DNA of 64,000 nucleotides, taken from Candidatus Moraniibacteriota bacterium. GTDB taxonomy: Bacteria; Patescibacteriota; Minisyncoccia; Moranbacterales; GCA-2747515. The notes under the pieces are model-generated. The model was not told where the DNA came from. It ran no database searches and worked only from the letters and a program-made list of their open reading frames with translations. A program made the position numbers and the translations under genes. The stretch covers positions 385,734 to 449,733 of the forward strand of contig CP175956.1 of the NCBI GenBank assembly GCA_046116545.1, in the 5' to 3' direction. Positions 1 to 18,889 of the stretch are shown piece after piece. Position 1 is the first letter of the stretch; the number at the start of each line of letters is the position of its first letter.

Positions 1-1416
1 GAATCGGCATCCATGCGGATGCAAGGTATTCTTTGCTAACAGAAAAGAATATTTCCTTTCCTGCCGCAATAATCTCATGTGTCTTTTTGAGACTTTCCTC
101 AGTTGACACAATTTGATCAAGAATAGCCTCATGCAGTTCTGGTAAATTAACAGCATTTGATGATGCAATTTCTGCTTCATCTTCTGCACTATCACAAAAA
201 GTAAAAACATCATTGTATCGATGGCCCTCTAGTGCTGCCTGTGCTTGATTGAAAATATCATTTGCATTTTCCATCCTAGCAAGCATTGGTAATACGAAAT
301 AACCACTCTCTTCAACATGAGTAATTTTAACGACAGCCTCTACAAGAATTTGTTTAACAGCAGAAATACGTTTTGGCGCCTCACTAACACGTTGCTTCAA
401 ATCAGCAACTTGCTTTGCGATCAGAATATTTTTTGCATTCACTTCAATAAGCGACGCAAGGATTTCTCCGTACGTTTTTGCAATAGTGACATATTCCGGC
501 ACAGAAAGATTCTCAGTATCTGGATCCATTTTTGATGGTAAGCCAGTATATGTCCTCGCTGCATGACCATATGTTTTTTCTGCAGATGCAAACAACTCTG
601 CAACTACTACTATATCATCTGCAACAACAACTTTTACCAGAGAATTCACAAGTGACTTTGAACGAGCAATTGGAAGTTTTAATTCATTAATCAACCTCGA
701 ACATTGCACTTTCATACTCTGTGCTTTACGCTGTGCTGCGCTTCTTTTTTCTTGCTCCCTCTTTTTGTTTCTAAAAAACCAAATGATTGTTGCAATAATA
801 CCACCCACTACAGAAAGGGTGAAAATCCACTTAAGTAATGACCACAAGCCAGACATGTCTGTTGCTTCCTTTTGTACAACAACTGTCGGTGGTGCTACGC
901 GCATTGTCTCACGTACAACATTTGACTGTGGCACATGCGCAGCTGGCACCGGTACATCCAAAACTTTTTCAATTTCATTCAAGGCTGTTATAAATGCTTG
1001 AGCTAAATCACCACTCCGTAGTAGTGGTTTAACTTTGTTTTCACGTATCTGCTTATGATACAAATCCAATTCAGCTTTCCAAAAATCTCCATAGTACAAA
1101 CCTAAATCTCGTTTACCAAATGATACTATAAGTGATATCAATTTCCCATTACTGGTTGATTGCCATTCACTGCATGTATCTTTAAGATGTTGAACGTATG
1201 TATCAAAAGATGAATGTCCTCCAAAATCCTGTATTGCTTGCATACGAACCGTAGCACCAAACTTTTCTTCAAATTTTTGTACTACATCTGCAATACGTGA
1301 TTTATCAGAACCAAAGACACCTGCCTGATCCCATACAACACTACTACATTCATCCGCATATAATACTTGCGGCATAAAACATAGCAATATGCCAATTAAA
1401 ACTAACCATTTTTTCA
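1..1416 (-). CDS. TPM-domain (TLP18.3/Psb32-like phosphatase-fold) membrane protein; 5'-partial in window (gene continues past position 1; start codon at 1414-1416)
   Basis: Own translation of minus strand from ATG at 1416: MKKWLVLIGILLCFMPQVLYADECSSVVWDQAGVFG... signal peptide, TPM-like core (GGHSSFDTY..DFWKAEL), one TM helix (IFTLSVVGGIIATIIWFF), long charged C-terminal region; not in ORF track because it runs off the window edge; plus-strand ORFs 317..535 and 765..1001 are its shadows. Confidence 0.5.
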
Positions 1417-1626
1417 TGAGCCTCTCCCACTTTTAAATTGATAGTATGGTCTTTATACTAAACCAAACTGTTAAAAAACTAATTTTTCTGAAAAATCATT
1501 TCCAGAGTTTTATTTATACAAAAAATATACATAAAACTCTAAAAATCATACATGATAATATATTTACAATAATAATCACTATCAAAAAACCGACTAGATA
1601 ATGTAACACAAAATCAGTAAAAAATC

Positions 1627-1656
1627 AAGCACTAGTTTTATTCAAAACTAGTGCTT
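1627..1656 (-). terminator. intrinsic terminator after PurA-like gene
   Basis: agcactagtttt-attc-aaaactagtgct hairpin abutting the stop codon, T-rich on minus strand downstream. Confidence 0.6.
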
Positions 1657-3091
1657 ATTTTAATGCTTTTTGGTACATCCTACAAATCTTATCTGTAGCA
1701 CATGGACCGACCGACACAATACCTATAAGTGTATTTAGCTCATGTTCTATAAATTGAACATATTGTTGTGCTGAGGGTGGCAATTCATCATAACTTCGTA
1801 TATGCGAAATTTTTTCATACCATCCTATGTGTTGTGTCATTATCGGAATACATTGATTTAACACATGCGTACGATAACGACTCATTTCTCTCGATACATT
1901 TTCATTCTTTTTGATATCATCGATAACTACTCGTTCACCAATATAATGATATTCAAAAAGTTGATTGAAAAATTCACCAACCTCACCCTGATATTCATAT
2001 GATGTACACACATCAATGACATCCATACCAGAAAGTCGATCGAGATTTGTTAAGGAAATATAGTCAAGATTACCTGTACATGCGATTGCATACTTCGTAG
2101 CTACAAGATCAAGCCATCCTACACGGAAATTACCTTGCCATTTTCCCGTACCGTTATGCATATCTGGAATCAATTGACCCAGCTCATAACTTTCTGTTAC
2201 AAATGGTCCAGCGCCATGTCGTGTCATATATGCACGCATAACTCCAACTCGTACAACATCCGCATCACACTCTTCCAGTAATAAATCTGCATTGTAACTA
2301 GTTGTCTGAGAATGCGTGATGTGTGGATAAAAACCATACCCTTCATCCAACAAGACTCCTTGCGAGCCTTCAAACACAAGTGGCCCGACACAATGATTAA
2401 AGAAATCATTCGCTGACATTATTTGCACAATGTCATTTGTTGCAAAATGATAAAATTGTTCACAGATGTCTTCTACATAACCACGCTGCGTTAATTGTGC
2501 AAATAATATTTGCACTTGTTCATTATTTGAATACTGCGCCATAACCTGTTCAGCAAAATCAATCTTGAAATCTCTGAGAAAACATAACTTTTTCAAAGAT
2601 ATTTGTTTATCTGCAAGGTCTCCGATGCGTAATACTTGCTCACCAAATATAACTCCATCAGAAAATGTTTCTCCAACTCCCATGCCACAACTTCCGAGTC
2701 GTTCATCACCACGTATACATTCACGCATACGATTTATAATTTTGTGAAATGGTGTAGTGACCAAACATTTTGAATCAATTGTTATATTTCGTAAACTATC
2801 ATATTGCAGTTTCCCCTGTAATATGCCCAATTCATTTATGAGTGCAACTGGATCAACTACCATATAACGAGACAAGAAAGTTTGAATCTGCTTACTAAGT
2901 GAAGCTGCTCCAATTTGTGCAAAGCAATGGTGTGTACCATCACTCAATAAAATATTATGCGCAGCCTGCGCACCTCCACTAAATCTACAAATTGCAGTTG
3001 CTCTTACATATTGAGCTAGATAATCAACCGTTGTTCCCTTGCCCTCATCGCCAAATCCAAGTCCAACTACAACATATACGTTTTGTGTCAT
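1655..3091 (-). CDS. adenylosuccinate synthetase (PurA) family ligase, divergent
   Basis: GDEGKGT P-loop-like motif near N-term, SGGAQAAHN (cf GGHNAGHT), FEGSQGVLLD..YPHITHSQTT (cf FEGAQGTLLD..YPYVTSSNTT), GAGPF, GWLDLV, LTNLD, VSVGPC blocks all collinear with PurA; but the PurA Arg-rich Asp/IMP loop (TGRRRRTGW) is replaced by GKWQGNFRVGW. Confidence 0.7.
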   Translation of the reverse strand: MTQNVYVVVGLGFGDEGKGTTVDYLAQYVRATAICRFSGGAQAAHNILLSDGTHHCFAQIGAASLSKQIQTFLSRYMVVDPVALINELGILQGKLQYDSLRNITIDSKCLVTTPFHKIINRMRECIRGDERLGSCGMGVGETFSDGVIFGEQVLRIGDLADKQISLKKLCFLRDFKIDFAEQVMAQYSNNEQVQILFAQLTQRGYVEDICEQFYHFATNDIVQIMSANDFFNHCVGPLVFEGSQGVLLDEGYGFYPHITHSQTTSYNADLLLEECDADVVRVGVMRAYMTRHGAGPFVTESYELGQLIPDMHNGTGKWQGNFRVGWLDLVATKYAIACTGNLDYISLTNLDRLSGMDVIDVCTSYEYQGEVGEFFNQLFEYHYIGERVVIDDIKKNENVSREMSRYRTHVLNQCIPIMTQHIGWYEKISHIRSYDELPPSAQQYVQFIEHELNTLIGIVSVGPCATDKICRMYQKALK

Positions 3092-4009
3092 TTATGCATT
3101 CACCTCCCTTGCGATAAAACGTAAAAATTGTTTGTATACATCAATTGCCTTATTAAATGCTGTTTCAGAAAAACACAAGCTATCACTCAGCATAATTGTC
3201 CTATATCCAAATGAATACATCAGATACAAGTCAGATAGGTCTCCAATAGAAACATCTCCACTAGATACAAATGATGTCAGTATACGAGACGCAACAATTG
3301 CATTTGAATCTTTTGCAATAATCATTTGCAACGCATCAAGTATATTCCATTTATTTGAACCAATATTGATGTATAAATCATCACGTGCAGCCATAAGACC
3401 AGTCTTTTGAACTGCGTCAATGTTTTGTACAAATTGCAATCCTGCACATGACTCAATTTTTGCAATTACTTGTGCATCTTTATCGCGAGCATGCAAAACA
3501 TCAATATCACATTGATTTTGAACAAATGACAACATGTAGTCATGTAATCCTAACTCCTTAGCTACTTCTATATACTCACAATCCTCATCAGTAAAAAATC
3601 CTTTTATACACAGATTATTTCCAATGATATTCACTGCTTGACCCGCACCAACAGCATGCTGTGGTGGTGGATCTACAAAAATTTTTATACCATTGATTTC
3701 ACGAATTTCAGATTTACTTCCATCACGAAATACAATAGTTGCAGGTAGGTCAACACTAACTTCATGATTGAGCTCAATGTCTCCGTAAGTTGGTTCTGCC
3801 CACTTTACAATACGTAATTGTCGACATTTCAAATCAACCCATAGCTTCTTTTCACCCAAACATTCGATTATACGCTCCAATGTATTTTTTGGAGTATATG
3901 GTGTACGTACACCAGTATTAAATCGCACAGCATTTACTTGCGTATTCATAACTATCTTGTACATTTGCGTAACATGTGGTGACGGAATTGTTGCTATTAA
4001 TTTCATCAT
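3092..4009 (-). CDS. pyruvate-kinase-like TIM-barrel protein (A-domain only, no B/C domains)
   Basis: N-term KLIATIPSP...VNAVRFNTG resembles PK (K)IVCTIGP...MNVARLNFSHG; AKIESCAGLQFVQNIDAVQKTGLMAARDDLYINIG matches PK (S)KIEN.EGV.N.DEI...DGIMVARGDLGVEIP; only 305 aa. Confidence 0.55.
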   Translation of the reverse strand: MMKLIATIPSPHVTQMYKIVMNTQVNAVRFNTGVRTPYTPKNTLERIIECLGEKKLWVDLKCRQLRIVKWAEPTYGDIELNHEVSVDLPATIVFRDGSKSEIREINGIKIFVDPPPQHAVGAGQAVNIIGNNLCIKGFFTDEDCEYIEVAKELGLHDYMLSFVQNQCDIDVLHARDKDAQVIAKIESCAGLQFVQNIDAVQKTGLMAARDDLYINIGSNKWNILDALQMIIAKDSNAIVASRILTSFVSSGDVSIGDLSDLYLMYSFGYRTIMLSDSLCFSETAFNKAIDVYKQFLRFIAREVNA

Positions 4010-4091
4010 CTATCTACCTCCTCGAACTTGAAATAAAGATGGAGGAGATGTGCATCTACACGGCTCCTCCATTTATTTTTATCTTACCTGA

Positions 4092-5627
4092 TTACAGACG
4101 ACTTGTTTTGTTCTTGCGTCTCTTACCAGAGTTTCTTGCAGGTAAATTACCTGTATCAACTTTCGCAATTGCTGTTGTACTTGCCAGACTATCCAGCGCA
4201 CCCCGAGCATCACTTTGACGAATCTGTGTCTGACCACGCCCTGCCATATCGACAATATAATCATCAATATCAGTTCCTTCAGAAATTGCTAACGCACCCA
4301 TCATTACATCCACAACTGCGCGAGGATCATCAATGATAAGAATGTTTTCCTCTGGAATAACTGACGCCCACTGCGCTTTGATGACTTGATCATCATAACC
4401 AGAATACATACCCACTTCCAACGGACGCTCGTTTGGATCAAAATCAAACGTACCTACAACCACGTCACTTCCTGTCGGAGGAGTACCACTTCCGCGTCCA
4501 ACTGTTCCTTGGCCAATCGTGTCAGTAAAAGTCTGAATTTTACCATGCATTTCTACTTCAACAGTAAAATCTATGGGAAACTGACGATAGCTATTATCAT
4601 CATGTACAGAAAAATTTCGCATAAAAACAGTATATTTACCTTTTGGTGCACTGCCTCGTTCCCACCTGACATTTTCTACTGGTTTACGTGTCTCACGTCC
4701 ACCAGCATTACGATCAACATCCAGTTCACCTCGTCCATTACGAGATACTTTATTATCATATGCGATGTGTTCTGCTACACCGCCTGCGCCAACATCTGGA
4801 TCAACAATGACATGTAAATCCAAATCATCATATGTATTCCACATCCCTGTTGCCCGAAAGTCAATATCTTCATATTGTCCACCAGCTTCATCAAGACGCT
4901 TTTTGATTTCTGCATCAATATCATCCTTTCTTTCTTCCCACGTTTTTTGTGGATAGACAAAGAAAACATGATATTTTTCTTGCAATTCGCGGAAAATCTG
5001 TTCTGTCGGAATGTCAGATGGAACATCATCACCAATATAGGTTTTGATTTGATCCTTGGAAATATTAGAATAAAATCCTTCATCGCCTAGAAAAAAAAGA
5101 TATCCTTTTTTACCACGCTTCCAACAATCAAGCTCCGTCTTTCTGGCGAGGTAATACGCCATGAGTTCATATGACTCTTGACCAGTTCCTCCACCACCTT
5201 CTTCCAACCAGATTTTGCCCAAGTGTTCATCCAAGACATTATCAGCATCAAACTGTGCTACCTGAATTGGTGCCTTATCACCACTTGTCGCATCACCAAC
5301 AGCCGCAAAGCAGATCTCAGGATCATCAACATAGCCCTTCATGATTAGCTGACCGATAAACATCGGTAACTTACCATAAATTACTTTTGCATCATCACCA
5401 CGTGACCTCGTCACATCCATCGCAACAATAATTGGCGTTGCTTGTGGATGTTCCTCGGTATCACGACATTCACGTATCATATCTTTGATATTCAAGTCAT
5501 CATGAACTGCACGACGTGCTGTCGCAGCATCTTCATCTGGACCCTCATATCCTGAATACGTAAAATTATCTCTGCAACTTGAGCGTTGTCGATCACCTAC
5601 ATCACCGTCGTAAAATCCTCCACCCAT
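4092..5627 (-). CDS. von Willebrand factor A (vWA) domain protein with ~300-aa uncharacterised C-terminal region
   Basis: IIVAMDVTRSRG (MIDAS-like DxTxS), ...EEGGGGTGQESYELMAYYLARK, ...YLFFLGDEGFY fits vWA fold signature; GC content visibly higher than flanking genes. Confidence 0.5.
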   Translation of the reverse strand: MGGGFYDGDVGDRQRSSCRDNFTYSGYEGPDEDAATARRAVHDDLNIKDMIRECRDTEEHPQATPIIVAMDVTRSRGDDAKVIYGKLPMFIGQLIMKGYVDDPEICFAAVGDATSGDKAPIQVAQFDADNVLDEHLGKIWLEEGGGGTGQESYELMAYYLARKTELDCWKRGKKGYLFFLGDEGFYSNISKDQIKTYIGDDVPSDIPTEQIFRELQEKYHVFFVYPQKTWEERKDDIDAEIKKRLDEAGGQYEDIDFRATGMWNTYDDLDLHVIVDPDVGAGGVAEHIAYDNKVSRNGRGELDVDRNAGGRETRKPVENVRWERGSAPKGKYTVFMRNFSVHDDNSYRQFPIDFTVEVEMHGKIQTFTDTIGQGTVGRGSGTPPTGSDVVVGTFDFDPNERPLEVGMYSGYDDQVIKAQWASVIPEENILIIDDPRAVVDVMMGALAISEGTDIDDYIVDMAGRGQTQIRQSDARGALDSLASTTAIAKVDTGNLPARNSGKRRKNKTSRL

Positions 5628-5667
5628 TTTTTAATCCTCCTGATTTTTTAACATTTTACCAATAGTG

Positions 5668-6762
5668 TTATACACGGAATTCCAAAAACTTTTTTGGACC
5701 CCATAATTCTATAACCAAATCATTTAACATTGCATACATTTCCCATGCATCTTGTGCACGTTGCCGCGGACTCTCAAGTGTAAAAAACTTGAGAAATCTC
5801 TGCAGCGCAGCGTTCACAGATGCAGGCATTGCATTTGTTTTTACATCACCACCAAGCGCAAAGATCATCGTTTTCCCTAGAGAATAGAGATCTGATGCTG
5901 GTAACGGTGACTTTTTCTGCACAACTTCTGGTGCACTAAATTCCTCATTAAATACCTTGAACCCATCATTTGTTCGTGCAGGATTCAGAGCACTATAACA
6001 CCAGTCAATAAGCCATGCGTTATGATCTTTTGGTCGAATCATAATATGTGATGGATCGATGTTTCCATGTACACAACCTTGACTATGTACATAACCAAGC
6101 GCACTAAGCGCACGGTTCATCATCCATACAACATGCTTCTGATCAATACCATATTTCCATCGCGAACTTTCACGAATAGAATATAAGTCATGACCATCAA
6201 TGTACTCCATTATCGTTCCAAGTTGTCCATCACTGGTCTTGAATCGATCCAAAAGTACTGGAAGATGTTTCAATTGACTTGCAGGATTATCTTTGAACAA
6301 TCGCAAAATTTTAATCTCATTTTGCATCAAATCATTATCTGCACTATCATCAACAACTTTTACAACAACTGGACCAGTAAATGCATCTCCAATCGCCTGA
6401 CCACCATACACAACACTTAAATCACCTTCTGCAAGCGTCTTTGTGACAGTATACGTATTTTTACGAGTTTGAATCGTAAATGATTCACTATCTGAAATAT
6501 CAGTTTGTTCTTCAGATAATGTGTCTCCGTATATGCCTTGCGTCAATTTTCGAGTTGCCTTTACATAATACTCAGTCAACTTTACAAAAGCATCATTTGC
6601 CTGCACATTACCATTATTTCTATCTGGATGTACAACTTTTGATAACTGCCTAAAAGTACTTTTAACAAAAGCTGCATTTGCTTCAATGCCAAAGATATCC
6701 TCAGGATATTGTGCACATTCTATTCGCTCACATACAACTGTAAGTTCTCCCATTGCTTTCAC
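5668..6762 (-). CDS. J-domain (DnaJ-like, HPD motif) fused to protein-kinase-like domain, probable pseudokinase
   Basis: N-term ...FRQLSKVVHPDRNNGNVQANDAFVKLTEYY (HPD J-domain); kinase-like VVVKVV / EIKILRLF / catalytic-loop position VHGNIDPSHIMI (HRDLKPEN with D->N and K->D) / LIDWCYS (DFG-like) / SAPEV (APE). Confidence 0.55.
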   Translation of the reverse strand: MKAMGELTVVCERIECAQYPEDIFGIEANAAFVKSTFRQLSKVVHPDRNNGNVQANDAFVKLTEYYVKATRKLTQGIYGDTLSEEQTDISDSESFTIQTRKNTYTVTKTLAEGDLSVVYGGQAIGDAFTGPVVVKVVDDSADNDLMQNEIKILRLFKDNPASQLKHLPVLLDRFKTSDGQLGTIMEYIDGHDLYSIRESSRWKYGIDQKHVVWMMNRALSALGYVHSQGCVHGNIDPSHIMIRPKDHNAWLIDWCYSALNPARTNDGFKVFNEEFSAPEVVQKKSPLPASDLYSLGKTMIFALGGDVKTNAMPASVNAALQRFLKFFTLESPRQRAQDAWEMYAMLNDLVIELWGPKKFLEFRV

Positions 6763-6771
6763 CTCCTCTTA

Positions 6772-7410
6772 TTAATTGTACTCATTGTGCACAATAATAC
6801 ATGCATCATCTTTTTGTAATTTGATTTTTTCTTCATACAATGACACAACATCTGACTCAAAACGATCTCGCACAACTTGTGCTGATACACCATACTTTTG
6901 TGTATCACGCATAATTCTCCGTTGTAAAAGTGTTTGTACACTAACATCTATAAAAATATCAATTATGTCACATGAGAGTGTTTGTAAAATAGTAGTGACA
7001 AACAATCCCTCAGCAATAATAATATTTGCTGGTTGACACACATTTTTATGATGTGTAATTCGTTTGTTCAAGTAAATATCATATTGCGGAATGCATACAG
7101 CATTTCCACATAACAATAAACCAATATCTGAAATAAATTCTCGTGTATGATACGAATCAATACTATCAAATATACACCGACCATTTTGGTCTCGTGGCAA
7201 TGTGTTATCATCAACATCCTTAAAATAAGAATCTAATGCTATAACAATTGACATTATATCGCCTTGCAGTAATGCCTGAGTTAATTGCTGTGAAAAATAA
7301 GTTTTTCCACTACAACTACCCCCGGAAACAGCTACTACGATTGGAGAATGTATATATTGCAAATATTCTACAAGTACATTTACGCACAAACATATATTCT
7401 TGTATTCCAT
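6772..7410 (-). CDS. uridine kinase / nicotinamide riboside kinase family P-loop nucleoside kinase
   Basis: VAVSGGSCSGKT Walker A; ALDSYFKD, IIIAEGLF, RRIMRDTQKYGVS..V..RFESDV.SLYEEKI collinear with Udk (IPEDCYYKD, VIILEGIL, RRIKRD..RGRS..V...Y). Confidence 0.7.
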   Translation of the reverse strand: MEYKNICLCVNVLVEYLQYIHSPIVVAVSGGSCSGKTYFSQQLTQALLQGDIMSIVIALDSYFKDVDDNTLPRDQNGRCIFDSIDSYHTREFISDIGLLLCGNAVCIPQYDIYLNKRITHHKNVCQPANIIIAEGLFVTTILQTLSCDIIDIFIDVSVQTLLQRRIMRDTQKYGVSAQVVRDRFESDVVSLYEEKIKLQKDDACIIVHNEYN

Positions 7411-7480
7411 TGACTATATCCTCTTGTATTTTATTTTTAAAAAACTTTTTTTCATTCTGATAAACATTTCTATCTATAAG

Positions 7481-7538
7481 AATGGAAATGGTATACCTAA
7501 ATAAATATTTTGATACACTAATTTCTGTAAAATTATAT
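7481..7538. repeat. duplicated intergenic element in NAD cluster (copy 1)
   Basis: aatggaaatggtatacctaaataaatattttgatacactaatttctgtaaaattatat vs copy at 8241-8298. Confidence 0.5.
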
Positions 7539-7539
7539 G

Positions 7540-7570
7540 TCTAAGAAGATAAATTTTTATCTTCTTAGAC
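7540..7570 (-). terminator. hairpin/terminator downstream of NMNAT-like gene
   Basis: tctaagaagataaa-ttt-ttatcttcttaga perfect palindrome. Confidence 0.5.
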
Positions 7571-7574
7571 TGAT

Positions 7575-8192
7575 TTATGTTTTATATAAATTATTAGAAA
7601 CGATATAGCATGATACATCATCATTTACAAGATGTCTAGTAGTTTCTCCTGCTGCAATGTACTCTCGTGCCATGGTACCCGAACCAAAAATATTAGAAAT
7701 CCCAACAAGTCGTGATTGTGGTGGCAGATCATTACGAGACACCTGATATCCAGGTCGCCGTAATACTAAAAAATTAAGGTCCTGCCAAATTTCACATCCC
7801 CTGCTCCATGTACGGTGAATTTCTGATGCACCATCTTGTCCACCTTCGATTATGTCACCGCCCACGATGTGCCAAATTTCCCCATCAGAAAATTCGTCTT
7901 CATACCTCTTTTGCAAAAGATACGTCGGAGTATACGTGCAACAATCAATGTCATGATAGTCGATTATGACATCATCCATATCTGATAATGCAATCGCTAA
8001 CATATTTTTGCGATGCACTGGTGTAATGACATTTGCCGATTGTTTATCTGGACGTATCCCACATGGCACAACGATCAATACGTCAAAAAACCGTTTCATA
8101 TATTCAATAATTTGAACATGATGTATACATGGCGGATTAAAACTACCCCCAAAAATACCAACTACTTTTTTCATAATTACACCTCTAATCAT
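7575..8192 (-). CDS. nicotinamide/nicotinate mononucleotide adenylyltransferase-like nucleotidyltransferase (eukaryote-type GSFNP motif)
   Basis: VGIFGGSFNPPCIHHVQII = (H/T)xGH-class nucleotidyltransferase motif in the GSFNP(P) form of NMNATs; size 205 aa. Confidence 0.6.
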   Translation of the reverse strand: MIRGVIMKKVVGIFGGSFNPPCIHHVQIIEYMKRFFDVLIVVPCGIRPDKQSANVITPVHRKNMLAIALSDMDDVIIDYHDIDCCTYTPTYLLQKRYEDEFSDGEIWHIVGGDIIEGGQDGASEIHRTWSRGCEIWQDLNFLVLRRPGYQVSRNDLPPQSRLVGISNIFGSGTMAREYIAAGETTRHLVNDDVSCYIVSNNLYKT

Positions 8193-8240
8193 AAAACTTT
8201 AAAAGAACTCATCATCATCCCAAAAATATATTAACCTTAG

Positions 8241-8298
8241 GATGGAAATAATATATCCAAACATAAATTTTGATACACAATTTCTATAATTCAATTTT
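8241..8298. repeat. duplicated intergenic element in NAD cluster (copy 2)
   Basis: gatggaaataatatatccaaacataaattttgatacacaatttctataattcaatttt. Confidence 0.5.
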
Positions 8299-8390
8299 GT
8301 GCTATACCAAGCACATACATGTTTGTTAAAAATATTTATTTATCCAGTGTGCAAAAATTTATTTTGCACACTGGATTTTTGACAACGATA

Positions 8391-9077
8391 TTATTGTGCG
8401 ATGATTTGTGCAGCAGACTGTACAATTATAGCTCCAGCGTCTTGCATTTCATCAATGGCTTTTTTTGTACCATCTGGATCTATACCACGACAAGCACCTA
8501 AATTTAGAATTACTTTAAATCCAGCACGTAATAATTGAAGCACTGTTAGCTTCACACAAAAGTCAGTAGCCAACCCGCCAACAATCACCGTATCCATACC
8601 CTGCACTTGCATCCACTCAATAACACCAGTAGATATTTTATCTCCAAGATCATGATAACATGCCCCATACGGATGCATGTCTCTTTCAACTCCCTTGTAA
8701 ATCAAGAAATCATACTCTTCCGGTTTTGGCAGGCCTGCAATCAACTCAAAACCAAATGTGCCAGGTACACCATGCATAAACCACTTTAAATCAATATTTG
8801 CTAAATCTGCAAAGCATCCTTCTACAGGCTGAGCCAATTCCTTCAATTCCTCTGTTTTCCAATAAGCATTGACCGGATGAGCATCCTTAGATACAACTCG
8901 TTTACTTGCTTTTTTTGCACCATCATTGAGTTCATCAACAATATCCTCACCACCTTTAACAGCTAATTCATCTGGACACCTTGGCGTAAAGCAGTACATC
9001 GCGTCCACATCAAATGCTACTGTTATTGCCTTTTTCACATATACATTATCCATAATCACTACCCCTCCTTTATACAT
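8391..9077 (-). CDS. pncA: nicotinamidase/pyrazinamidase (PncA), isochorismatase-family cysteine hydrolase
   Basis: TVIVGGLATDFCVKLTVLQLLRAGFKV with the GLATD(Y/F)CV catalytic Cys motif; N-term Asp and Lys-bearing blocks typical of the family. Confidence 0.65.
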   Translation of the reverse strand: MYKGGVVIMDNVYVKKAITVAFDVDAMYCFTPRCPDELAVKGGEDIVDELNDGAKKASKRVVSKDAHPVNAYWKTEELKELAQPVEGCFADLANIDLKWFMHGVPGTFGFELIAGLPKPEEYDFLIYKGVERDMHPYGACYHDLGDKISTGVIEWMQVQGMDTVIVGGLATDFCVKLTVLQLLRAGFKVILNLGACRGIDPDGTKKAIDEMQDAGAIIVQSAAQIIAQ

Positions 9078-9326
9078 TTTAGATTTATGATTTTATACAT
9101 AGGCTATTTACAGATCCACTTGTTATCGTTTATTTCAAAGAACAAAACCTTATCGTTACATTAAGTTTTAACTAATTTGCTGTCCAACTATCTTATATGA
9201 TTTTTATAATTGACAGACTTTAGTTATTACTTAGTGTATGTCTTACACTTCTAAATTCACTATAGCACCCCATCCAAATCGTGTCAAGTCTACACTAAGT
9301 ATTTATGGATAACTTTTACAATATAT

Positions 9327-9367
9327 AAAAACCACTTTAAGATAATTATCTTAAAGTGGTTTTTTCT
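9327..9367. terminator. bidirectional intrinsic terminator
   Basis: aaaaaccactttaagataattatcttaaagtggttttttc : 14-bp perfect stem flanked by A- and T-tracts. Confidence 0.7.
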
Positions 9368-9372
9368 ATTTG

Positions 9373-10125
9373 TTAATATGCTTTTAACTGTAAAATAGAT
9401 CTCTTGAGATTTAACCTTGCCTGATTTTCATATCTATCCTTGAAATAATCTGTAAGAAAGATACTCGATCTATTATTCAAAAAGTCGGCTAAAATTTTAG
9501 ACCTTCCCTCTCGAAATGCTAACTCCTCCACCCATGCATATTCTTTTCTAATATTACTTTCATATTCGTCAAAAATATCTACTGGCTGTCCGAGTATAAG
9601 CAAATCAATATCAAGACCAGTCATCGTATCAGTGCTATGCGGAGTATTTTTGTGATCATAATAAATAATTGCTTGAGCAACAGCATCAACTATTTCACTT
9701 ACTACACCATACTTTGTCAAAAACTCCCTAGCATATTCACCACTCATCACATCATTATACCCCAGGGCATACTCTCTTGCTTCGCAATTCACCTCATCAC
9801 TCCTACTAAAATCCATCACACTATCATGCAAAACCAATTGCCACAACACATTTATTGGATTTTTAACTTTGTCTACAACATGCTCAAAAAAACTATGTAT
9901 ACAAAATTCGATGTGACCATCAAATGTATGATAATATCGTTTTGACTTATTATATTTTACAACAAGTTCCTGAAATCCTTGTTGATAATCACCAGTGCAT
10001 GCGCTATATCGCCACAAAGTTTCAAATTTTCTTTCTAAACAGTTCATCCCTAATCCTCCGCTTTTTGTAGAGACACGATTAATAGTATCTCTACAATTTT
10101 CATTATAAATGACTGCAAAAAGCAA
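9373..10125 (-). CDS. HD-domain metal-dependent phosphohydrolase (predicted)
   Basis: H..H...HD...D spacing: YHTFDGHIEFCIHSF ... LVLHDSVMD; no closer family assignment possible by eye. Confidence 0.4.
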   Translation of the reverse strand: MLFAVIYNENCRDTINRVSTKSGGLGMNCLERKFETLWRYSACTGDYQQGFQELVVKYNKSKRYYHTFDGHIEFCIHSFFEHVVDKVKNPINVLWQLVLHDSVMDFSRSDEVNCEAREYALGYNDVMSGEYAREFLTKYGVVSEIVDAVAQAIIYYDHKNTPHSTDTMTGLDIDLLILGQPVDIFDEYESNIRKEYAWVEELAFREGRSKILADFLNNRSSIFLTDYFKDRYENQARLNLKRSILQLKAY

Positions 10126-11137
10126 CGGCCTGTTTACGCAATTCGCCTATGTGACAATCAGTGTTAACATACACAAAATTTAATATCTCGCACTTACAAA
10201 TATCCCGTGATTCTTGTAAGTTTGGTATCGCATTAGTCAAAACTTTGTGCTTAGGGGTTCCACGTTTATCCAAACGTTCATGACTTACATCATCACTACA
10301 TCCAACATAAATAATCTTCCCACCTAAATATTTATACACTTCCTTCCCTGCTCTAAGTCCATACGGAACTTCCAAAAAAATATTACTGCCAGCAGGAACT
10401 TGTCGCAAATATTCTCGCACTGCTCCAAACCATACATCTACTATAACCTTAGTTACTTCCGAATCATTCTTTGAAACAAGTGCAACCAAATCTGCGTCCT
10501 GACCAAACTTATCCAGAAGTAATGGTCGTACACGCTTTGAACATTCATCAGTATCAATCCAAATATTTTTGGTATCAACTTCAGAAACCATCTTCAAAAA
10601 AGTACTCTTACCTGATCCAGGGCAACCTACAACCATAAATATATTTCTGGCCTGTAGCTCTCTTTCTAAAAGAATTGAGACGATGCCCGGCGCTACATAT
10701 TTCGCCAACATTTGAAAATCAAGATCACCAATAGCACGCCTCGCACGTGTAGCAGAAACAGAGACGAACTCCTCCTTAGCCCACACATAAAATATTTTAT
10801 CAATGCCAAACATCTCTTTGTTAATCTTCATGACATGTCTCTCATGCTCCATATCATCCTCGCACCTAATACCACGAATCATGACAACATCAGGAAAATC
10901 AAATCTACCTTTACTTTCTTCAAATGTAATCACATCTACATTGCTCGGTAAATTATAATACTTCCACATTGCTACACATTCTTTTTCACTAAACCAGCGT
11001 GTCTTATCCTTCTTCTCATTAGTTGAACAGACAATTGTTACTTTTGGTAAAATTCTACTAGCCTCTTTCACAATTGCAAAGTGTCCATACGTCGGTGGTG
11101 AAAAAACTCCTGGAAAAATAAATTGTCCATTACTCAT
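10103..11137 (-). CDS. bifunctional cytidylyltransferase-like nucleotidyltransferase (CoaD/NMNAT class) + P-loop kinase (NadR- or CoA-synthase-like architecture)
   Basis: N-term FPGVFSPPTYGHFAIV...VTIVCSTNEKKD...ISATRARRAIGDLD collinear with PPAT/CoaD (GTFDPITNGH...NPSKKPLF...SS(T/S)L(I/V)RE..GGD); C-term FMVVGCPGSGKSTFLK Walker A kinase domain. Confidence 0.55.
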   Translation of the reverse strand: MSNGQFIFPGVFSPPTYGHFAIVKEASRILPKVTIVCSTNEKKDKTRWFSEKECVAMWKYYNLPSNVDVITFEESKGRFDFPDVVMIRGIRCEDDMEHERHVMKINKEMFGIDKIFYVWAKEEFVSVSATRARRAIGDLDFQMLAKYVAPGIVSILLERELQARNIFMVVGCPGSGKSTFLKMVSEVDTKNIWIDTDECSKRVRPLLLDKFGQDADLVALVSKNDSEVTKVIVDVWFGAVREYLRQVPAGSNIFLEVPYGLRAGKEVYKYLGGKIIYVGCSDDVSHERLDKRGTPKHKVLTNAIPNLQESRDICKCEILNFVYVNTDCHIGELRKQAVAFCSHL

Positions 11138-11180
11138 ACTTTACCCTCCTGCTATATTTACTATTATGATTATTTAAACT

Positions 11181-11217
11181 CCTTCGCATTGTCATCCTGA
11201 ATTTATTTCAGGATCTA
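11181..11217. repeat. TGTCAT-family palindromic unit upstream of frameshifted TrmB gene
   Basis: ccttcgcattgtcatcctgaatttatttcaggatc. Confidence 0.4.
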
Positions 11218-11449
11218 AGTCTTACTAGAGCTTTGTGATATTACAAGATTCTGTAATAAGTTCAGAATGAGATCTTCTATTGTTAAATTACTATAAATAG
11301 CTTATACTAATTAACAAGATAAATCGTCAGTGACAACTAAAAATATTATCAGTTCCTTGTTTTTAAGTTAAATAAAGAACTATCACATCAATAATTGTCG
11401 ATTTATTTCGACATCACTACTGATTTATATAAAAAATTTATCAATTATT

Positions 11450-12200
11450 ATGTCACAAAAAATTAAAAAGTATTTACGAGAATTAGGCTTTAGTAAAAAT
11501 GAACAAAAAATCTATATAGCACTTACTGAGCTTGGTGAAGCTAGTGCTTCCATAATTGCAAAAAAAAGCAGATACACCACGCACCACAGCAATAAGCATC
11601 CTAGAAAAACTTGAGAAAGAAAAATATATATCTATCCAACGTTACCGTGGTCGAAACACATTTTGGATTGAATCACCTCAAATGATCAAAAAATCGCTTG
11701 AACAAAAAGTAGTAATAGCTGATGAATTAGATATACTTTTAACAGATCTCTATCGATCAGAGTCTGATTTTCCATATGCAAAAATATATGATACTAAATC
11801 TAGCATCAAATCATTCATCGAAACCCTAATATCAAAAACTGAAAATGGGACTACTATCTATACTATTGATAATCCAAAGTCAGGAAATTACCGTAAGATC
11901 CTATCGAAGAAATTTTATTACGATATGATTGCTATGAAAAATAAAAATAATATTACAACACAAACACTTATCCCAGAAGGTACCTACAAAACAATAAATC
12001 CTCAAAAAATTATTGACAGAAATATTGAAATTCATGAATTACCTAAAAATGTAGAATTTAAAGCATCTCTCTGGATTATTGATAACACACTAGTTCTATT
12101 TTCAGGAAAATATCCTTTTATCGTTGCCGTTAATCATAAGATTATAACAAGTAGTATTAAATCATTTTTCGACTATTTTTGGATGATTGCCAAAAATTAA
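11450..12200 (+). CDS. TrmB-family transcriptional regulator, interrupted by +1 frameshift in A8 run at 11560-11567 (paralog of 52906..53649)
   Basis: ATG at 11450 gives MSQKIKKYLRELGFSKNEQKIYIALTELGEASASIIAKK then stop; ORF-track frame 11556..12200 continues ADTPRTTAISILEKLEKE...; removing one A fuses them to SIIAKKADTPRTTAISILEKL, which aligns with the intact paralog YRVAQKSGVKKPTTYVLLDEL. Confidence 0.55.
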
Positions 12201-12238
12201 ACAAGGAAACCACTCATATATCGAGTGGTTTTTTCAGA

Positions 12239-12982
12239 TTATTTTGTAAATATCAATTCTCTTTTTTTAAATTTATATAATTTTGCTGGCCTATGCTTCA
12301 TGCCCTCTTTTACTTTCTTTGTTTCTGCCAGAATATTAAGTGATAGAATCTTTTTTCGAAAATTTCTTTTATCAACTATTGTGCCTAAAATAATCTCATA
12401 AACTTGTTGCATTTCAGTTAAAGTAAATGTTTTTGGTAACAGCCCATATACAATATTTGAATATTCAATCTTTGCCCTCAATCGTTCCACGCCAAACACA
12501 ATCATTTCTTTATGGTCAAATGCCATCTGTGGTAATTCTTCTACATCCACCCAATCAATGTCAGAGTAATAATCCATTGTTTTAAGATCAAGTTTATCAC
12601 TATTAACCAATGCAAAATATGCAACAGATATCATTCGTCCACGAATATCTCGCTTAAGGCTACTAAAACTATAGAGTTGCTCCATGTAAACACCTTTAAT
12701 TCCTGCTTTTTTCTTAAGCACATTTTTTGCTGCTTGATCCAGTGTCTCATCAATCTGTACAATTCCACCTGGCAACGCCCATTTATTCTCATATTTACCA
12801 CTACCAATTTCAATAAGTAAAGTCATTAATTTACCCTCTCGAATCGTAAAAATTAAAGTATCTACAGCAACAGCTGGTCCAATAATTAATTCATCTTTTC
12901 GTTTTGTATTTTGAATTTTCATAAATAAGATATAAAGTGTTATTAATACACTAACAATAACATATTTTTCCAATAAAGTCAA
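12239..12982 (-). CDS. nrtR: NrtR-like regulator: Nudix hydrolase domain + C-terminal winged-helix (NAD-metabolism repressor family)
   Basis: Nudix box region WALPGGIVQIDETLDQAAKNVLKKKAGI; ~90-aa C-terminal extension typical of NrtR wHTH; location at edge of pncA/NMNAT cluster. Confidence 0.55.
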   Translation of the reverse strand: MTLLEKYVIVSVLITLYILFMKIQNTKRKDELIIGPAVAVDTLIFTIREGKLMTLLIEIGSGKYENKWALPGGIVQIDETLDQAAKNVLKKKAGIKGVYMEQLYSFSSLKRDIRGRMISVAYFALVNSDKLDLKTMDYYSDIDWVDVEELPQMAFDHKEMIVFGVERLRAKIEYSNIVYGLLPKTFTLTEMQQVYEIILGTIVDKRNFRKKILSLNILAETKKVKEGMKHRPAKLYKFKKRELIFTK

Positions 12983-14681: not shown

Positions 14682-16310
14682 CTATAATTGTCCTCCACAA
14701 TTTGCACAAAACTTTGCACCTGCTATATTATCAGTGCCACAATTTGCACATTTTACAGGAATTATTTCATCTGAATTAGAGCCTTTATTTGCACCAAAAG
14801 CATTTTGATCTGTTGACTCATTATTTTTTTGTATCGATTGTGAATTTTGCACAGCTTCTTGTTGTATTGGCATTTCAATAGGTTGTGTTTTATTTTTCCT
14901 TTTTAAAGTTTTAATTACTATAAGTATTATTACAATAAGTATAATAATACCGAGTACACCAACAACGCCCAGTACCATAAAGCTAAATCCACCAGCTGTT
15001 GTGTCTTTTGCTGAACTTGCAATATTTACGTCATTTATTTTTACAGATGCCTTTTCTCCAGTTATACTATCATCTTGCATATCAGACCTTGCCTCACCAA
15101 TACCAGCTTCCGTATTTGCTTTTATTGTTGATGCTTTCTCTATAGGAGCGCCTTCTCCCTCTAAAGCAATTATAATATCGTACTGAGTTTTATCTTTTTT
15201 CGTTTTTTCAGACTCATATGCTGGACACCAAGAATAATTTCCACACGATTCTCTCCAATCATTCCCGATTGAAATATAATATTCACCTGTTTCATCTGCA
15301 ATAAATGCGGCTTTATAAGAAACTGGCTCTGTTGATCCTGACCGTAACCCTAGTGTTACTGGGGAAAATGCTCCAGAACCACATGAATCAGCGACCAACT
15401 CACTAACAACTGATTGATATTTATCATAAATTTTTACAACAGGCAACATACACATACTAGTTGCGTTATCTTCACTCATTGCCTGTTCTCTTTTCATATT
15501 TAATGCCGCTATAATATTTTGCCCCTTATATGCCTTAATTTTATAAAATTTAGTCTCACCGGCACGAATATCACCACCATAAGCACCCTCTTTAATAGTT
15601 GGTGCATTTACAAAGCCAGTACCTGCTGCAACACCGCCTGCATTTGCAAATCCTTCAAAAGCTCTTTGTGAAAAAAATGTCATACTTGCCACTAATTCTC
15701 CAGCATTCTTTGCACTTCTGTACTCTCCGCCTGTAGCCTGAGCAACACATTTAAGTTGTTCTTCTGCAATTCCACTAACATCAAATCCAACAGTGTTTAC
15801 AACTATATCAAATCCTTCGTCACGCATTTTTTTAACTGTTGCACAAGGATCTCCACCACATGTTTCCTCACCATCAGAAACAAGTATTACCATTTTGCCA
15901 AATTCTGGATTTTTATTAAAATCAGATTTTGTTTGTTGTAAAGAATAATCAATCGGAGTCCAACCGCCTGGATTAAGAGAATTAATTTTTGAAATTAATT
16001 GACTTTTATTTATTTTACTAATTGGATAAATTAATTCTGAATCCTGACAATCTTTATTTGCACTCGTTGATCTATGTCCATATGCACGAAATCCCACAAA
16101 TGCATTTTCTGGCATTTCATTTATAACTGTTGTCAGAGCTTCTTTTGCTACATCCATTTTTGATTTTCCTCCATCTATGATTCCTGCCATACTGCCTGAT
16201 ACATCCAAGATAATTTCGACATCATTACCTTTTATATCTACTGCCTGGACTTGTTGTACAAAAACCATACTGAATATGGCTAGACTGAGCATTATATAAA
16301 TCTTGTTCAT
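14682..16310 (-). CDS. exported vWA-domain protein with C-terminal TM helix and cytoplasmic double zinc-ribbon
   Basis: signal peptide MNKIYIMLSLAIFSMVFVQQVQA; ILDVSGSMAG (MIDAS DxSxS), GGWTP, ILVSDGEE; TM FSFMVLGVVGVLGIIILIVIILIV; tail CANCGTDNIAGAKFCANCGGQL. Confidence 0.6.
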   Translation of the reverse strand: MNKIYIMLSLAIFSMVFVQQVQAVDIKGNDVEIILDVSGSMAGIIDGGKSKMDVAKEALTTVINEMPENAFVGFRAYGHRSTSANKDCQDSELIYPISKINKSQLISKINSLNPGGWTPIDYSLQQTKSDFNKNPEFGKMVILVSDGEETCGGDPCATVKKMRDEGFDIVVNTVGFDVSGIAEEQLKCVAQATGGEYRSAKNAGELVASMTFFSQRAFEGFANAGGVAAGTGFVNAPTIKEGAYGGDIRAGETKFYKIKAYKGQNIIAALNMKREQAMSEDNATSMCMLPVVKIYDKYQSVVSELVADSCGSGAFSPVTLGLRSGSTEPVSYKAAFIADETGEYYISIGNDWRESCGNYSWCPAYESEKTKKDKTQYDIIIALEGEGAPIEKASTIKANTEAGIGEARSDMQDDSITGEKASVKINDVNIASSAKDTTAGGFSFMVLGVVGVLGIIILIVIILIVIKTLKRKNKTQPIEMPIQQEAVQNSQSIQKNNESTDQNAFGANKGSNSDEIIPVKCANCGTDNIAGAKFCANCGGQL

Positions 16311-16393
16311 ACTTTTATTTTTATTTATTACTTAATTATATTATATATCAATTTCCCAAAAAAATAAATATCACTAAACTCTTCATTAAATAT

Positions 16394-17074: not shown

Positions 17075-17133
17075 TGTTAGACTAAACCATTACAAAAAAA
17101 TTGTTATTTTAAAAAACAACGGAGGAGTTACAC

Positions 17134-17616: not shown

Positions 17617-17626
17617 TTGAATGCGC

Positions 17627-17660
17627 AAAAGCCCAACAATAAAATTGTTGGGCTTTTTTC
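17627..17660. terminator. bidirectional terminator between convergent genes
   Basis: aaaagcccaacaa-taaaa-ttgttgggcttttttc. Confidence 0.7.
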
Positions 17661-17683
17661 TTATGTTCTCATGACATTCTTAC

Positions 17684-18814: not shown

Positions 18815-18889
18815 AATATCTATAACATTAAAAATAAAAAATATTTACTATAATAATACTACATATCGTAATTCTTCCCTAGTCCTTAG

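Follow-up and report, generated by a model that had tools for sequence, protein, structure and literature searches.

Pairs of an AAA+ protein and a vWA protein act as enzyme activases; CbbQ-CbbO, NorQ-NorD, CoxD-CoxE, BchI-BchD and RavA-ViaA are examples. Phages can rebuild nicotinamide adenine dinucleotide (NAD) with small gene sets, namely NARP1 (Adps and Namat), NARP2 (Nampt and a nicotinamide mononucleotide adenylyltransferase, NMNAT) and NARP3 (PnuC and a NadR-like protein). The operators of the NAD repressor NrtR are, according to the NrtR regulon paper (PMC2330246), 21-bp palindromes with a GT-N7-AC core. Here, we describe a gene cassette that touches on all of these systems. It lies in a 64,000-nucleotide stretch (hereafter, the window; positions 385,734 to 449,733 of contig CP175956.1) of low-GC (33.5%) chromosomal DNA of Candidatus Moraniibacteriota, a member of the candidate phyla radiation (CPR, Patescibacteria). 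The cassette operon runs on the minus strand from 7410 to 1655 and encodes a Udk-like kinase (PRK), a J-domain pseudokinase (the J-kinase, JKIN), a vWA protein (MID), a mini pyruvate kinase (PKL) and a PurA paralog (PurAL). With moderate confidence, we read it as a conserved NAD-linked module, largely under NrtR control, with PKL and PurAL as its enzymatic core and a chaperone-type pair as its control. Its genes are the following:

1655..3091, minus strand: PurAL, 478 amino acids (aa); PF00709, 277 bits
3092..4009, minus strand: PKL, 305 aa; PF00224, 39.8 bits, with an AlphaFold2 (AF2) model and Foldseek matches
4092..5627, minus strand: the vWA protein MID, 511 aa; fold and metal-ion-dependent adhesion site (MIDAS) motif, no Pfam match
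5668..6762, minus strand: JKIN, 364 aa; Pkinase 64.6 bits, DnaJ 27.2 bits
6772..7410, minus strand: PRK, a Udk/PRK-family kinase of 212 aa and the first gene of the operon; PF00485, 54 bits

The intergenic gaps, in the order PRK–JKIN–vWA–PKL–PurAL, measure 9, 40, 82 and 0 nt. We use the term quartet for the PurA-like, PK-like and vWA genes together with that of the J-kinase or of an AAA+ protein in its place. A first-pass annotation, made by a model from the letters of the window alone, had delimited minus-strand genes in and upstream of the operon, and their boundaries agree exactly with those of ten open reading frames (ORFs) found here. Profile searches likewise returned most of the domains it had named: the PurA family, the PK barrel, the J domain with a kinase, the Udk/PRK kinase, PncA, a nucleotidyltransferase joined to a P-loop kinase, and NrtR. 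Its vWA call, to which Pfam is blind, is supported by the predicted fold and the MIDAS motif.

The cassette is conserved and has spread horizontally. When one genome per GTDB species was scanned, PK-like relatives were present in 362 species-level genomes from many bacterial and archaeal phyla. The carriers include Patescibacteria, Leptospiraceae, Gammaproteobacteria, Acidobacteriota, Clostridia and Bacilli, as well as Myxococcota, Planctomycetota, Bdellovibrionales, Woesearchaeota and Methanosarcinales. We also searched the window proteins against the ORFs of 82 non-duplicate loci. The full quartet was found in 64 of them, most of the others being truncated contigs; counted singly, PurAL is present in 75, the vWA protein in 78, the J-kinase in 60 and the AAA+ protein in 13. 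The conserved neighbourhood of the quartet, which the first-pass annotation had named as a check on its proposal, was thus found. The order kinase–unknown–PK-like–PurA-like is the same in Leptospiraceae, a Woesearchaeote and a Parcubacterium. PKL was seen only as part of the cassette. In the window, the stop codon of PKL abuts the start codon of PurAL, and the two abut or overlap in at least 61 of 75 loci.

Two variants of the arrangement deserve mention. In three archaeal loci (L080, L084 and L087, from metagenome-assembled genomes of Woesearchaeota and Methanosarcinales), there is no PurA-like gene, and the order is NMNAT, a short kinase (255-259 aa), the vWA protein, in two loci an ORF of 293-299 aa, and the PK-like protein. 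An IU-nucleoside hydrolase gene adjoins the PK-like gene in two of the three, an ADP-ribosylglycohydrolase gene is near it in all three, and the surroundings also hold NAD kinase and NrtR. As a general substitute for PurAL the hydrolase was rejected, for it is present in just those two archaeal loci. The second variant is viral. Matches were obtained in two of 2.9 million viral contigs; on the IMG/VR contig L089 (139 kb; 3883-12230 and 18726-20183), genes in the order AAA+–J-kinase–vWA–PK-like–PurA-like have a Gp23-type major capsid gene at a distance of 6.5 kb, so at least one phage, a T4-like one, carries the cassette. Two paralogous ORFs without assignment and a weak TelA-like ORF, whose 23.5 bits fall short of the cut-off, precede this copy.

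Is PurAL an ordinary adenylosuccinate synthetase (EC 6.3.4.4)? It is a full-length match to the family (PF00709, 276.9 bits, profile positions 1-413 of 416) and carries the GDEGKG P-loop. Its scores, however, fall under the NCBIfam purA equivalog cut-offs (NF002223, 239 vs. 402; TIGR00184, 217 vs. 395) and under that of the model NF038379 for PurZ, the phage relative of PurA in the 2-aminoadenine pathway (37.7 bits, cut-off 300). The best PurA in the PDB reaches 160 bits; each of the 120 best database homologs has 334 bits or more, and all of these bear the plain annotation “adenylosuccinate synthetase”.

When 69 cassette orthologs are compared column by column with PurA of E. coli (whose numbering is used), what PurAL keeps can be told from what it has lost. 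Asp13, His41 and Gln224, which we take to be catalytic, are among the former: G12, D13, K16, G17 and H41 are kept in 69/69 and Q224 in 68/69. D333, presumably the guanine-reading residue, is fully conserved, T239 nearly so, and the glycine-rich loop for inosine monophosphate (IMP) is kept. The presumed aspartate site (T300, T301, R303, R305 and R131) is replaced: T300 has become W in 59/69 and T301 Q in 56/69, R303 is deleted, R305 is F in 42/69 and R131 is variable, such that a W-Q-G-x-F-R loop stands in its place. As for the residues that we take to be ligands of the IMP 5'-phosphate (N38, T129, T239 and R143'), N38 is Q in 64/69, T129 is C or V and R143 is lost, leaving T239 as the sole one kept. 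Further family-specific changes are Q34 to N, K331 to N, C or S and, in 69/69 each, V273 to H and R317 to Y. The aspartate pocket is not simply closed; it holds aromatics (W, F, Y, H). Judged by these residues, PurAL is not a housekeeping PurA: it keeps the residues for GTP binding and O-phosphoryl transfer and has lost the aspartate site. Because the GTP site and catalytic residues are kept while the aspartate site is replaced, we predict a GTP-dependent phosphoryl activation with another nucleophile and perhaps another nucleotide. Our confidence in any single reaction assigned to PurAL is low.

PKL resembles pyruvate kinases marginally in sequence (PF00224, 39.8 bits; TIGR01064, 49.8 vs. a cut-off of 306; E=5e-5 to the best PDB chain) and closely in predicted fold. 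Its AF2 model has a predicted local distance difference test score (pLDDT) of 94.3, and the top 50 PDB matches from Foldseek are all pyruvate kinases, aligned over the whole length (E ~1e-18, TM(query) ~0.75). The protein comprises the A barrel and a small, shortened lid, and it ends after the barrel at 305 aa, without the C-terminal allosteric domain. Residues R29, N31, D59, K61, R66, K184, E186, D210 and S241 are invariant; mapped by motif, they presumably correspond to R73, N75, D113, K115, R120, K270, E272, D296 and T328 of pyruvate kinase. So mapped by eye, they fall on the motifs RxN, DxKGxxxR, KIE and (A)RxDL and on the Thr328 position, and on this alignment PKL keeps the catalytic residues of pyruvate kinase. 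In a 90%-clustered database, 296 homologs were found at E≤0.001, the best 120 being mostly ~300 aa long. The family amounts to 165 clusters at 50% identity (E<=1e-30, 1.84 billion representatives).

MID matches no Pfam model at all, those for vWA included. The top PDB matches of its AF2 model (pLDDT 76.7) in Foldseek are the vWA domains of the integrin beta I-like type, SpaC and Ku80. The MIDAS motif reads D71-x-T73-x-S75. In this site, D71, S75 and D182 show no variation, and conservation of T73 and T148 is at least 90%. A beta-sandwich (approximately residues 228-410) is inserted into the vWA fold, and short forms of the protein (~320 aa) elsewhere lack it. The insert is possibly YfaP/DUF2135-like, a label we use because one database homolog is named “YfaP family”. 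The N-terminal tail (residues 1-38; window 5513-5627) is predicted to be disordered and is nearly invariant, with the consensus MGGGxYDGDV, in which M1, G2 and Y6 are invariant and D9 and V10 at least 90% conserved. The acidic “GDV” resembles integrin-type MIDAS ligands; by that analogy, the tail may be an internal or partner-binding ligand. Elsewhere in the window (14682-20560, minus strand), a second, unrelated vWA protein (542 aa, with a C-terminal zinc ribbon) is encoded, followed by an HhH-GPD glycosylase gene and genes for TMEM43-family and DUF2207 membrane proteins.

The partner of MID in the window, JKIN, matches Pkinase at 64.6 bits and DnaJ at 27.2 bits, just under the 27.8 cut-off. 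Across 54 orthologs, the HPD of the J domain, the VAIK lysine (K135), the alphaC glutamate (E149) and an HGN motif are kept. This HGN, with a conserved Asn, occupies the catalytic loop instead of HRD, and the DFG aspartate is less than 80% conserved; with HGN in place of HRD, JKIN is likely a pseudokinase. The AAA+ protein that replaces it in 12 loci has 600-660 aa and its best PDB matches are VAT, VCP and Cdc48 (E=1e-58). In the loci of that type, a 247-aa ORF precedes the AAA+ gene, and two vWA paralogs are often present. The two partners are nearly mutually exclusive: among the 82 loci, 59 have the J-kinase, 12 the AAA+ protein and one both. A comparison by hhalign found no homology of either the AAA+ protein or the 247-aa ORF to the J-kinase. 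The vWA protein is always paired with a protein-remodelling partner, be it a J-domain (Hsp70-recruiting) pseudokinase or a Cdc48-like AAA+ protein.

The first gene of the operon, PRK, matches PF00485 at 54 bits and the NCBIfam uridine kinase model at 102 (cut-off 180), and its best PDB matches are Udk and UCK2. In 34 orthologs, aligned in UCK2 numbering, the P-loop, D62, K33, D84, R166 and R169 are kept in 31-34 of 34; of these, we take Asp62 to be catalytic and Asp84, Arg166 and Arg169 to bind ribose. The base pocket is changed. His117 and Arg176, presumably the pyrimidine-reading residues, are N (31/34) and V, I or M, and R174 is Y or F, Y65 is F and F114 is V, I or L. The kinase is found in 33 of the 82 loci. 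The first-pass annotation had seen the region as two fused halves, an NAD salvage set and an upstream part of no described pathway. That division did not hold: in this genome, the Udk-like kinase is in the same operon as the quartet, and NMNAT is a recurrent partner of the cassette; in 23 other loci it forms the C-terminal part of a fusion with NadE (CN_hydrolase and NAD_synthase domains), and in 4 it stands alone. Other genes for NAD or ADP-ribose metabolism among the 82 loci are NrtR (14), PncA (11), ADP-ribosylglycohydrolase (7), PncB (6) and Nudix (4).

A link to NrtR is suggested by candidate operators. In 1.4 Mb of loci, we counted 21 perfect GTGTA-N5-TACAC boxes, compared with 1.16 in shuffles (maximum 4). 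The box fits the GT-N7-AC core published for NrtR (PMC2330246), and we take it as a candidate NrtR operator. In Bacilli/Tenericutes loci, it lies 35-38 nt upstream of PKL, and the preceding gene is an nrtR with the same box in its own promoter. Acidobacteria loci have it before the J-kinase, as does one locus that its record labels Clostridia; in loci of Saccharibacteria and Parcubacteria, it precedes the Udk-like kinase. In a sister Moraniibacteriota genome (L008), a complete double-box promoter of the pncA type stands upstream of the J-kinase. Because the same palindrome occurs at the nrtR, pncA and nadD-pncB promoters and before the cassette, the position of the operators suggests that the cassette belongs, in many lineages, to an ADP-ribose-responsive NrtR regulon.

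The genes and control elements upstream of the operon in the window are:

7481..7527, minus strand: promoter-region element upstream of the cassette operon (alignment of two upstream regions)
7539..7570, minus strand: hairpin terminator after the NMNAT gene, with 15-nt perfect arms (terminator scan)
7575..8192, minus strand: NadD-type adenylyltransferase for nicotinate or nicotinamide mononucleotide (NMNAT), 205 aa, monocistronic here (NCBIfam nadD models, PDB matches)
8241..8286, minus strand: copy of the same promoter-region element, upstream of the NMNAT gene (alignment)
8391..9077, minus strand: PncA nicotinamidase, 228 aa (Isochorismatase, 48.6 bits)
9078-9305: copy of a double-box module; further copies at L001 16275-16500, L008 2760-2990 and 4568-4800, and L009 4748-4980
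9233..9249 (AGTGTA-N5-TACACT) and 9280..9296, minus strand: two candidate NrtR operators upstream of pncA (box scan)
9373..10125, minus strand: 250-aa ORF without family assignment (no Pfam, NCBIfam or PDB sequence match)
10103..11137, minus strand: nucleotidyltransferase like CoaD (phosphopantetheine adenylyltransferase, PPAT), fused to a P-loop kinase (PDB matches all PPAT)
11556..12200, plus strand: ORF with weak TrmB likeness, between nrtR and the CoaD-like gene (ORF scan, profile)
12239..12982, minus strand: NrtR, with a degenerate Nudix domain and a winged helix (NrtR_WHD 89 bits, NUDIX 35 bits)
12936..12952, minus strand: candidate NrtR operator just upstream of the nrtR start (box scan)

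NrtR itself matches PF21906 (NrtR_WHD) at 89.2 bits, PF00293 (NUDIX) at 35.4 bits and NF050029 at 166 (cut-off 400); the Nudix-box glutamates, inspected by eye, are replaced by Lys. Its true start is probably the ATG at 12922, and the Joint Genome Institute (JGI) gene call is 227 aa. Over 21 kb of this genome there are 7 copies of the longer box AGTGTA-N5-TACACT, as opposed to 0.9 expected, and none of 100 shuffles reached 7. The search for operators in the promoters, proposed by the first-pass annotation, thus yielded candidates at nrtR (one) and pncA (two); three more lie outside the window, upstream of nadD2-pncB-nadK-nadE. The box just upstream of the nrtR start implies a predicted autoregulation. 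At pncA, the pair of boxes brackets the region's best sigma-70-like promoter (TTGACA at 9287-9282 and TATAGT at 9264-9259, separated by a 17-nt spacer). This double-box module (a promoter of ~85 nt with two NrtR boxes) exists in five copies in three Moraniibacteriota genomes, and a conserved leader of ~60 nt follows four of the five, the L001 copy being the one without it. A search of the conserved leaders for riboswitches and known RNAs gave no Rfam match at the gathering thresholds and mere noise at E<=1. Since the L001 NAD cluster has three upstream boxes, the cassette would sit between two NrtR-controlled NAD loci.

That NAD cluster consists of a second nadD, pncB, a nadK-like gene, nadE and a 75-aa ORF, and it is located on the same contig, 3-8 kb past the left edge of the window (L001 16275-20706). 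The first-pass statement that PncB and NadE are missing from the window stands for the subset of window ORFs that were scanned; both genes are present on the contig. With PncA in the window and pncB, nadD and nadE on the same contig, the organism has the canonical Preiss-Handler route. PncA matches Isochorismatase at 48.6 bits and NF008623 at 82 (cut-off 174). NMNAT, which had been called eukaryote-type, has bacterial NadD proteins as its closest structures and best PDB matches, and reaches 78 bits with the NCBIfam nadD models (cut-off 150). The nucleotidyltransferase part of the CoaD-like fusion has PPAT matches exclusively in the PDB; by sequence, the fusion may not be an NAD enzyme but a bifunctional one of the CoA-synthase-like kind. 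For the adjacent ORF (9373-10125), previously called an HD phosphohydrolase, there was no Pfam match even at E<=10, no NCBIfam match and no significant PDB sequence match, and these sequence searches did not confirm that call. The fusion and this ORF are lineage-specific: they were found in Moraniibacteriota loci only, outside the conserved cassette.

A terminator scan placed hairpin terminators 3' of the 9373-10125 ORF, pncA, the NMNAT gene and the PurAL gene. Those between genes divide what had been described as one co-directional unit into separate transcription units, namely the CoaD-like gene with the 250-aa ORF, pncA, the NMNAT gene and the cassette operon. Nor are there eleven consecutive minus-strand genes, as had been counted; there are ten, and the plus-strand ORF at 11556-12200 separates nrtR from the rest. 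In the plus-strand region 11450-12200, the JGI calls are a 54-aa TrmB helix-turn-helix fragment and a 214-aa ORF, and a sister genome has a single 268-aa ORF; the split may reflect a frameshift in a regulator gene or a fault of the assembly.

The wider surroundings in the window are ordinary and cellular (UvrA, UvrC, GyrA, an aminoacyl-tRNA synthetase, tRNA-guanine transglycosylase and an M17 peptidase), and base composition is only mildly atypical, with a GC content at third codon positions of 0.21-0.29 vs. 0.16-0.24 in neighbouring genes. A phage island or prophage was considered and is countered by these chromosomal genes and by the merely slight rise at third positions. Directly downstream of the cassette (window 1-1417, minus strand, and L001 12593-15655) are genes for a 762-aa TPM-domain protein and PspA/IM30, both membrane-stress genes. 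A giant ORF of 2096 aa with LamG-like and DUF2341 domains occupies 38016-44306 (minus strand); the cassette of locus L028 also adjoins a 2096-aa ORF.

How might the module work? In the mechanism that we propose, ADP-ribose would signal NAD consumption and turn the module on, and NAD or its adenylate part would be rebuilt. The Udk-like kinase would phosphorylate a riboside other than uridine or cytidine, with nicotinamide riboside, nicotinate riboside and inosine as candidates, and the NadD-type NMNAT (with NadE where the two are fused) would complete NAD from the mononucleotide. In PurAL, GTP would activate an oxygen of a ribonucleotide, which would be replaced by a nitrogen nucleophile other than aspartate. 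PKL, translationally coupled to PurAL, would regenerate GTP or ATP from phosphoenolpyruvate (PEP), an energy source independent of NAD. By analogy with the AAA+/vWA activases, the vWA protein and the J-pseudokinase would form a chaperone-coupled adaptor or activase that controls PKL and PurAL. Two PurAL chemistries fit and are computationally inseparable: in one, a pyridine base would be joined to a ribosyl compound that has been activated; in the other, IMP would be aminated directly. Because the cassette is without the PncB-equivalent step, and that one alone, pyridine-base coupling would fill it. A more specific proposal, which we rate as speculative and rather unlikely, is that PurAL performs a reaction new to its fold. 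GTP would activate an oxygen of a ribosyl compound (ribose-5-phosphate, ribose or ADP-ribose) or of a 6-oxopurine nucleotide and couple it with a pyridine base or another non-aspartate nitrogen; together with the Udk-type kinase, NadD/NadE and the PEP-driven mini-PK, this would rebuild NAD independently of phosphoribosyl pyrophosphate (PRPP), under ADP-ribose/NrtR control and checked by the vWA adaptor with Hsp70, recruited through the J-pseudokinase, or with a Cdc48-like unfoldase.

Several observations weigh against a NAD-linked module under NrtR. No full NrtR box was found at the cassette or NMNAT promoters of the window: the 46-nt element common to the two holds only an NrtR half-site, TTAGTGTA, and is not conserved in sister genomes. 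The earlier claim of NAD salvage under NrtR is borne out by the link across genomes; in this genome, the boxes stand at pncA, nrtR and nadD2-pncB-nadE instead. Within 10 kb, 49 of the 82 loci have no recognised NAD or ADP-ribose gene (28 if the Udk-like kinase is counted too), and these include Leptospiraceae and most of the Myxococcota-type (AAA+-type) loci. As the genome already encodes the canonical PncA-PncB-NadD-NadE route, there is no evident gap for the cassette to fill, and the substrates proposed for its three enzymes (PurAL, PKL and the Udk-like kinase) are guesswork. Finally, an architecture of vWA protein, kinase and AAA or J-domain protein, with patchy horizontal spread, is also typical of conflict systems.

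A conflict system is the alternative that survives best, and we still consider it rather improbable. In such a system, the vWA/J-pseudokinase (or AAA+) pair would sense an invader or the state of the host, and PurAL and PKL would make a toxic nucleotide or, in the manner of NARP, restore NAD after attack by an NADase, in anti-phage defence, counter-defence or as a tool of a parasite. The distribution, patchy and clearly horizontal across phyla and both prokaryotic domains, would suit it, as would the bona fide T4-like phage contig that bears the cassette and the established status of NAD reconstitution as a phage strategy. It is also our impression that many carriers are episymbionts, predators or reduced-genome organisms (CPR, DPANN, Bdellovibrionales, Myxococcota). 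The kinase domain of JKIN is like defence kinases in PADLOC at the family level (mad6, PD-T4-6), but this match is to the generic kinase fold and no other component has one, and on that ground a known defence system was rejected. Moreover, the kinase is without the catalytic Asp, the viral occurrences are just two among millions of contigs, the genes around the cassette serve NAD housekeeping and do not form defence islands, and control by a metabolic repressor is predicted from the boxes.

Could the module instead serve purine or adenylate salvage, tied loosely to NAD? The Udk-like enzyme would then be an inosine (purine nucleoside) kinase, PurAL would turn IMP into adenosine monophosphate (AMP) or an N6-substituted AMP with ammonia or a small amine, with no need of PurB, and PKL would recharge GDP or ADP. 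This would be the smallest change from PurA chemistry, as PurAL retains D13, H41, Q224 and T239 together with the glycine-rich IMP loop, and the base pocket of the kinase is enlarged by smaller residues (F114 to V, I or L; R176 to V or I; H117 to N). Such a pathway would be useful for organisms without de novo purine synthesis, although large-genome Myxococcota and Planctomycetota are carriers as well. On the other hand, the IMP 5'-phosphate ligands N38, T129 and R143 are changed, the aspartate pocket is filled by aromatics instead of just closed, and the NrtR operators and the NadE-NadD, PncA, PncB and ADP-ribosylglycohydrolase neighbours are left unexplained. We consider this reading quite unlikely.

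A stress cluster of the Ter type, making a “nucleoside-like metabolite” through TerY-P-like vWA/kinase signalling and a biosynthetic module, is very improbable. The vWA protein is paired with a kinase, the TelA-like ORF (below cut-off, as noted) lies beside the phage copy, and TPM-domain and PspA genes are downstream in this genome; the analogy that the first-pass annotation drew is a loose resemblance only. Neither TerD, TerB or TerC nor PP2C, ATP-grasp, phosphoribosyltransferase or HpcH/citrate-lyase-like genes are in the cassette or recurrent in the 82 loci, the vWA protein matches no Pfam vWA model, TerY-type included, and the predicted regulation is by NrtR. The remaining alternative, housekeeping purA and pyk genes beside unrelated vWA and kinase genes, for which the first-pass annotation had allowed and which public annotations (“adenylosuccinate synthetase”, “pyruvate kinase”) would favour, has a negligible probability and is ruled out by residues, scores and synteny: PurAL and PKL are far under the equivalog cut-offs, the Asp-binding and IMP-phosphate residues of PurAL are lost or replaced, PKL is without its C-domain and belongs to a family of just 165 clusters, and the four-gene synteny is kept across phyla.

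The NAD-linked module, if correctly read, would be of consequence for several fields. NAD salvage and its control by NrtR are considered well charted, yet a module of four to six genes lies in that regulon and is carried by hundreds of species, its genes being annotated only as “adenylosuccinate synthetase”, as “pyruvate kinase” or as hypotheticals. For CPR and DPANN organisms, metabolic models would change where these “purA” and “pyk” calls are taken at face value. A new substrate pair for PurAL, if there is one, would extend what a textbook enzyme family is known to catalyse, as PurZ did; the cassette enzymes are members of superfamilies already known, the regulon too is of a familiar type, and we give a rather small chance to the chemistry being new. 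If the module rebuilds NAD, it would bear on the arms race that phages and hosts wage over NAD depletion, and, were the PRPP-independent route true, it would represent a fourth kind of NAD reconstitution pathway, both cellular and phage-borne. That the vWA protein can have either a J-domain pseudokinase or a Cdc48-like protein as its partner points to a chaperone-dependent control of a pair of metabolic enzymes.

How does the cassette compare with what has been described? Targeted full-text literature searches, whose coverage excluded most subscription journals, did not find a description of it, and term searches in papers on NAD-ADPr comparative genomics, the NrtR regulon (PMC2330246) and NARP3 did not find the gene combination. 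Like the NrtR regulons of Rodionov et al. 2008 (PMC2330246), the present loci have a Nudix-wHTH (winged helix-turn-helix) repressor gene adjoining NAD genes and GT-N7-AC palindromes upstream of nrtR, pncA and nadD-pncB-nadE. That paper has 0 occurrences of PurA, pyruvate kinase and uridine kinase (the terms searched did not extend to vWA or kinase/J-domain), whereas here such genes lie behind NrtR-type boxes in many genomes.

With NARP1-3, the cassette shares the character of a compact, mobile NAD-rebuilding set: the logic of a riboside kinase and an NMNAT resembles NARP3, and one cassette copy is phage-borne. It differs in that its kinase is of the Udk family and its NMNAT of the NadD family, and in its four extra genes. 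Profile searches found no PRPS-like Adps, NAPRTase/Nampt-like protein (Namat or Nampt), PnuC or NadR domain among the ten window genes. The TerY-P triad (a vWA protein, PP2C and a Ser/Thr kinase) is alike in having vWA and kinase-fold genes side by side; in contrast, the cassette has neither a phosphatase nor a Ter context, and its kinase has a J domain and no catalytic Asp.

The AAA+/vWA activase pairs, to which we liken the control pair, also combine a MIDAS vWA protein with an ATP-driven remodelling partner, beside enzymes that they possibly serve. The partner in the cassette, however, is a J-domain pseudokinase (59 loci) or a classic AAA+ protein of the Cdc48/VAT-like kind (12), not one of the MoxR type. 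PKL shares with pyruvate kinase the fold of A-domain barrel and lid and, as mapped by eye, the invariant catalytic, metal and PEP positions; unlike pyruvate kinase, it has ~300 aa, a shortened lid and no C-terminal allosteric and tetramerisation domain. PurAL differs from PurA and PurZ in scoring below all equivalog cut-offs, in the replacement of its Asp site and in being always coupled with PKL, the vWA protein and a partner of the chaperone type. It shares with them the full-length PF00709 fold, the GDEGKG P-loop and the equivalents of Asp13, His41, Gln224 and Asp333, residues that imply two steps, phosphorylation of an oxygen with GTP and then its substitution by a nitrogen nucleophile.

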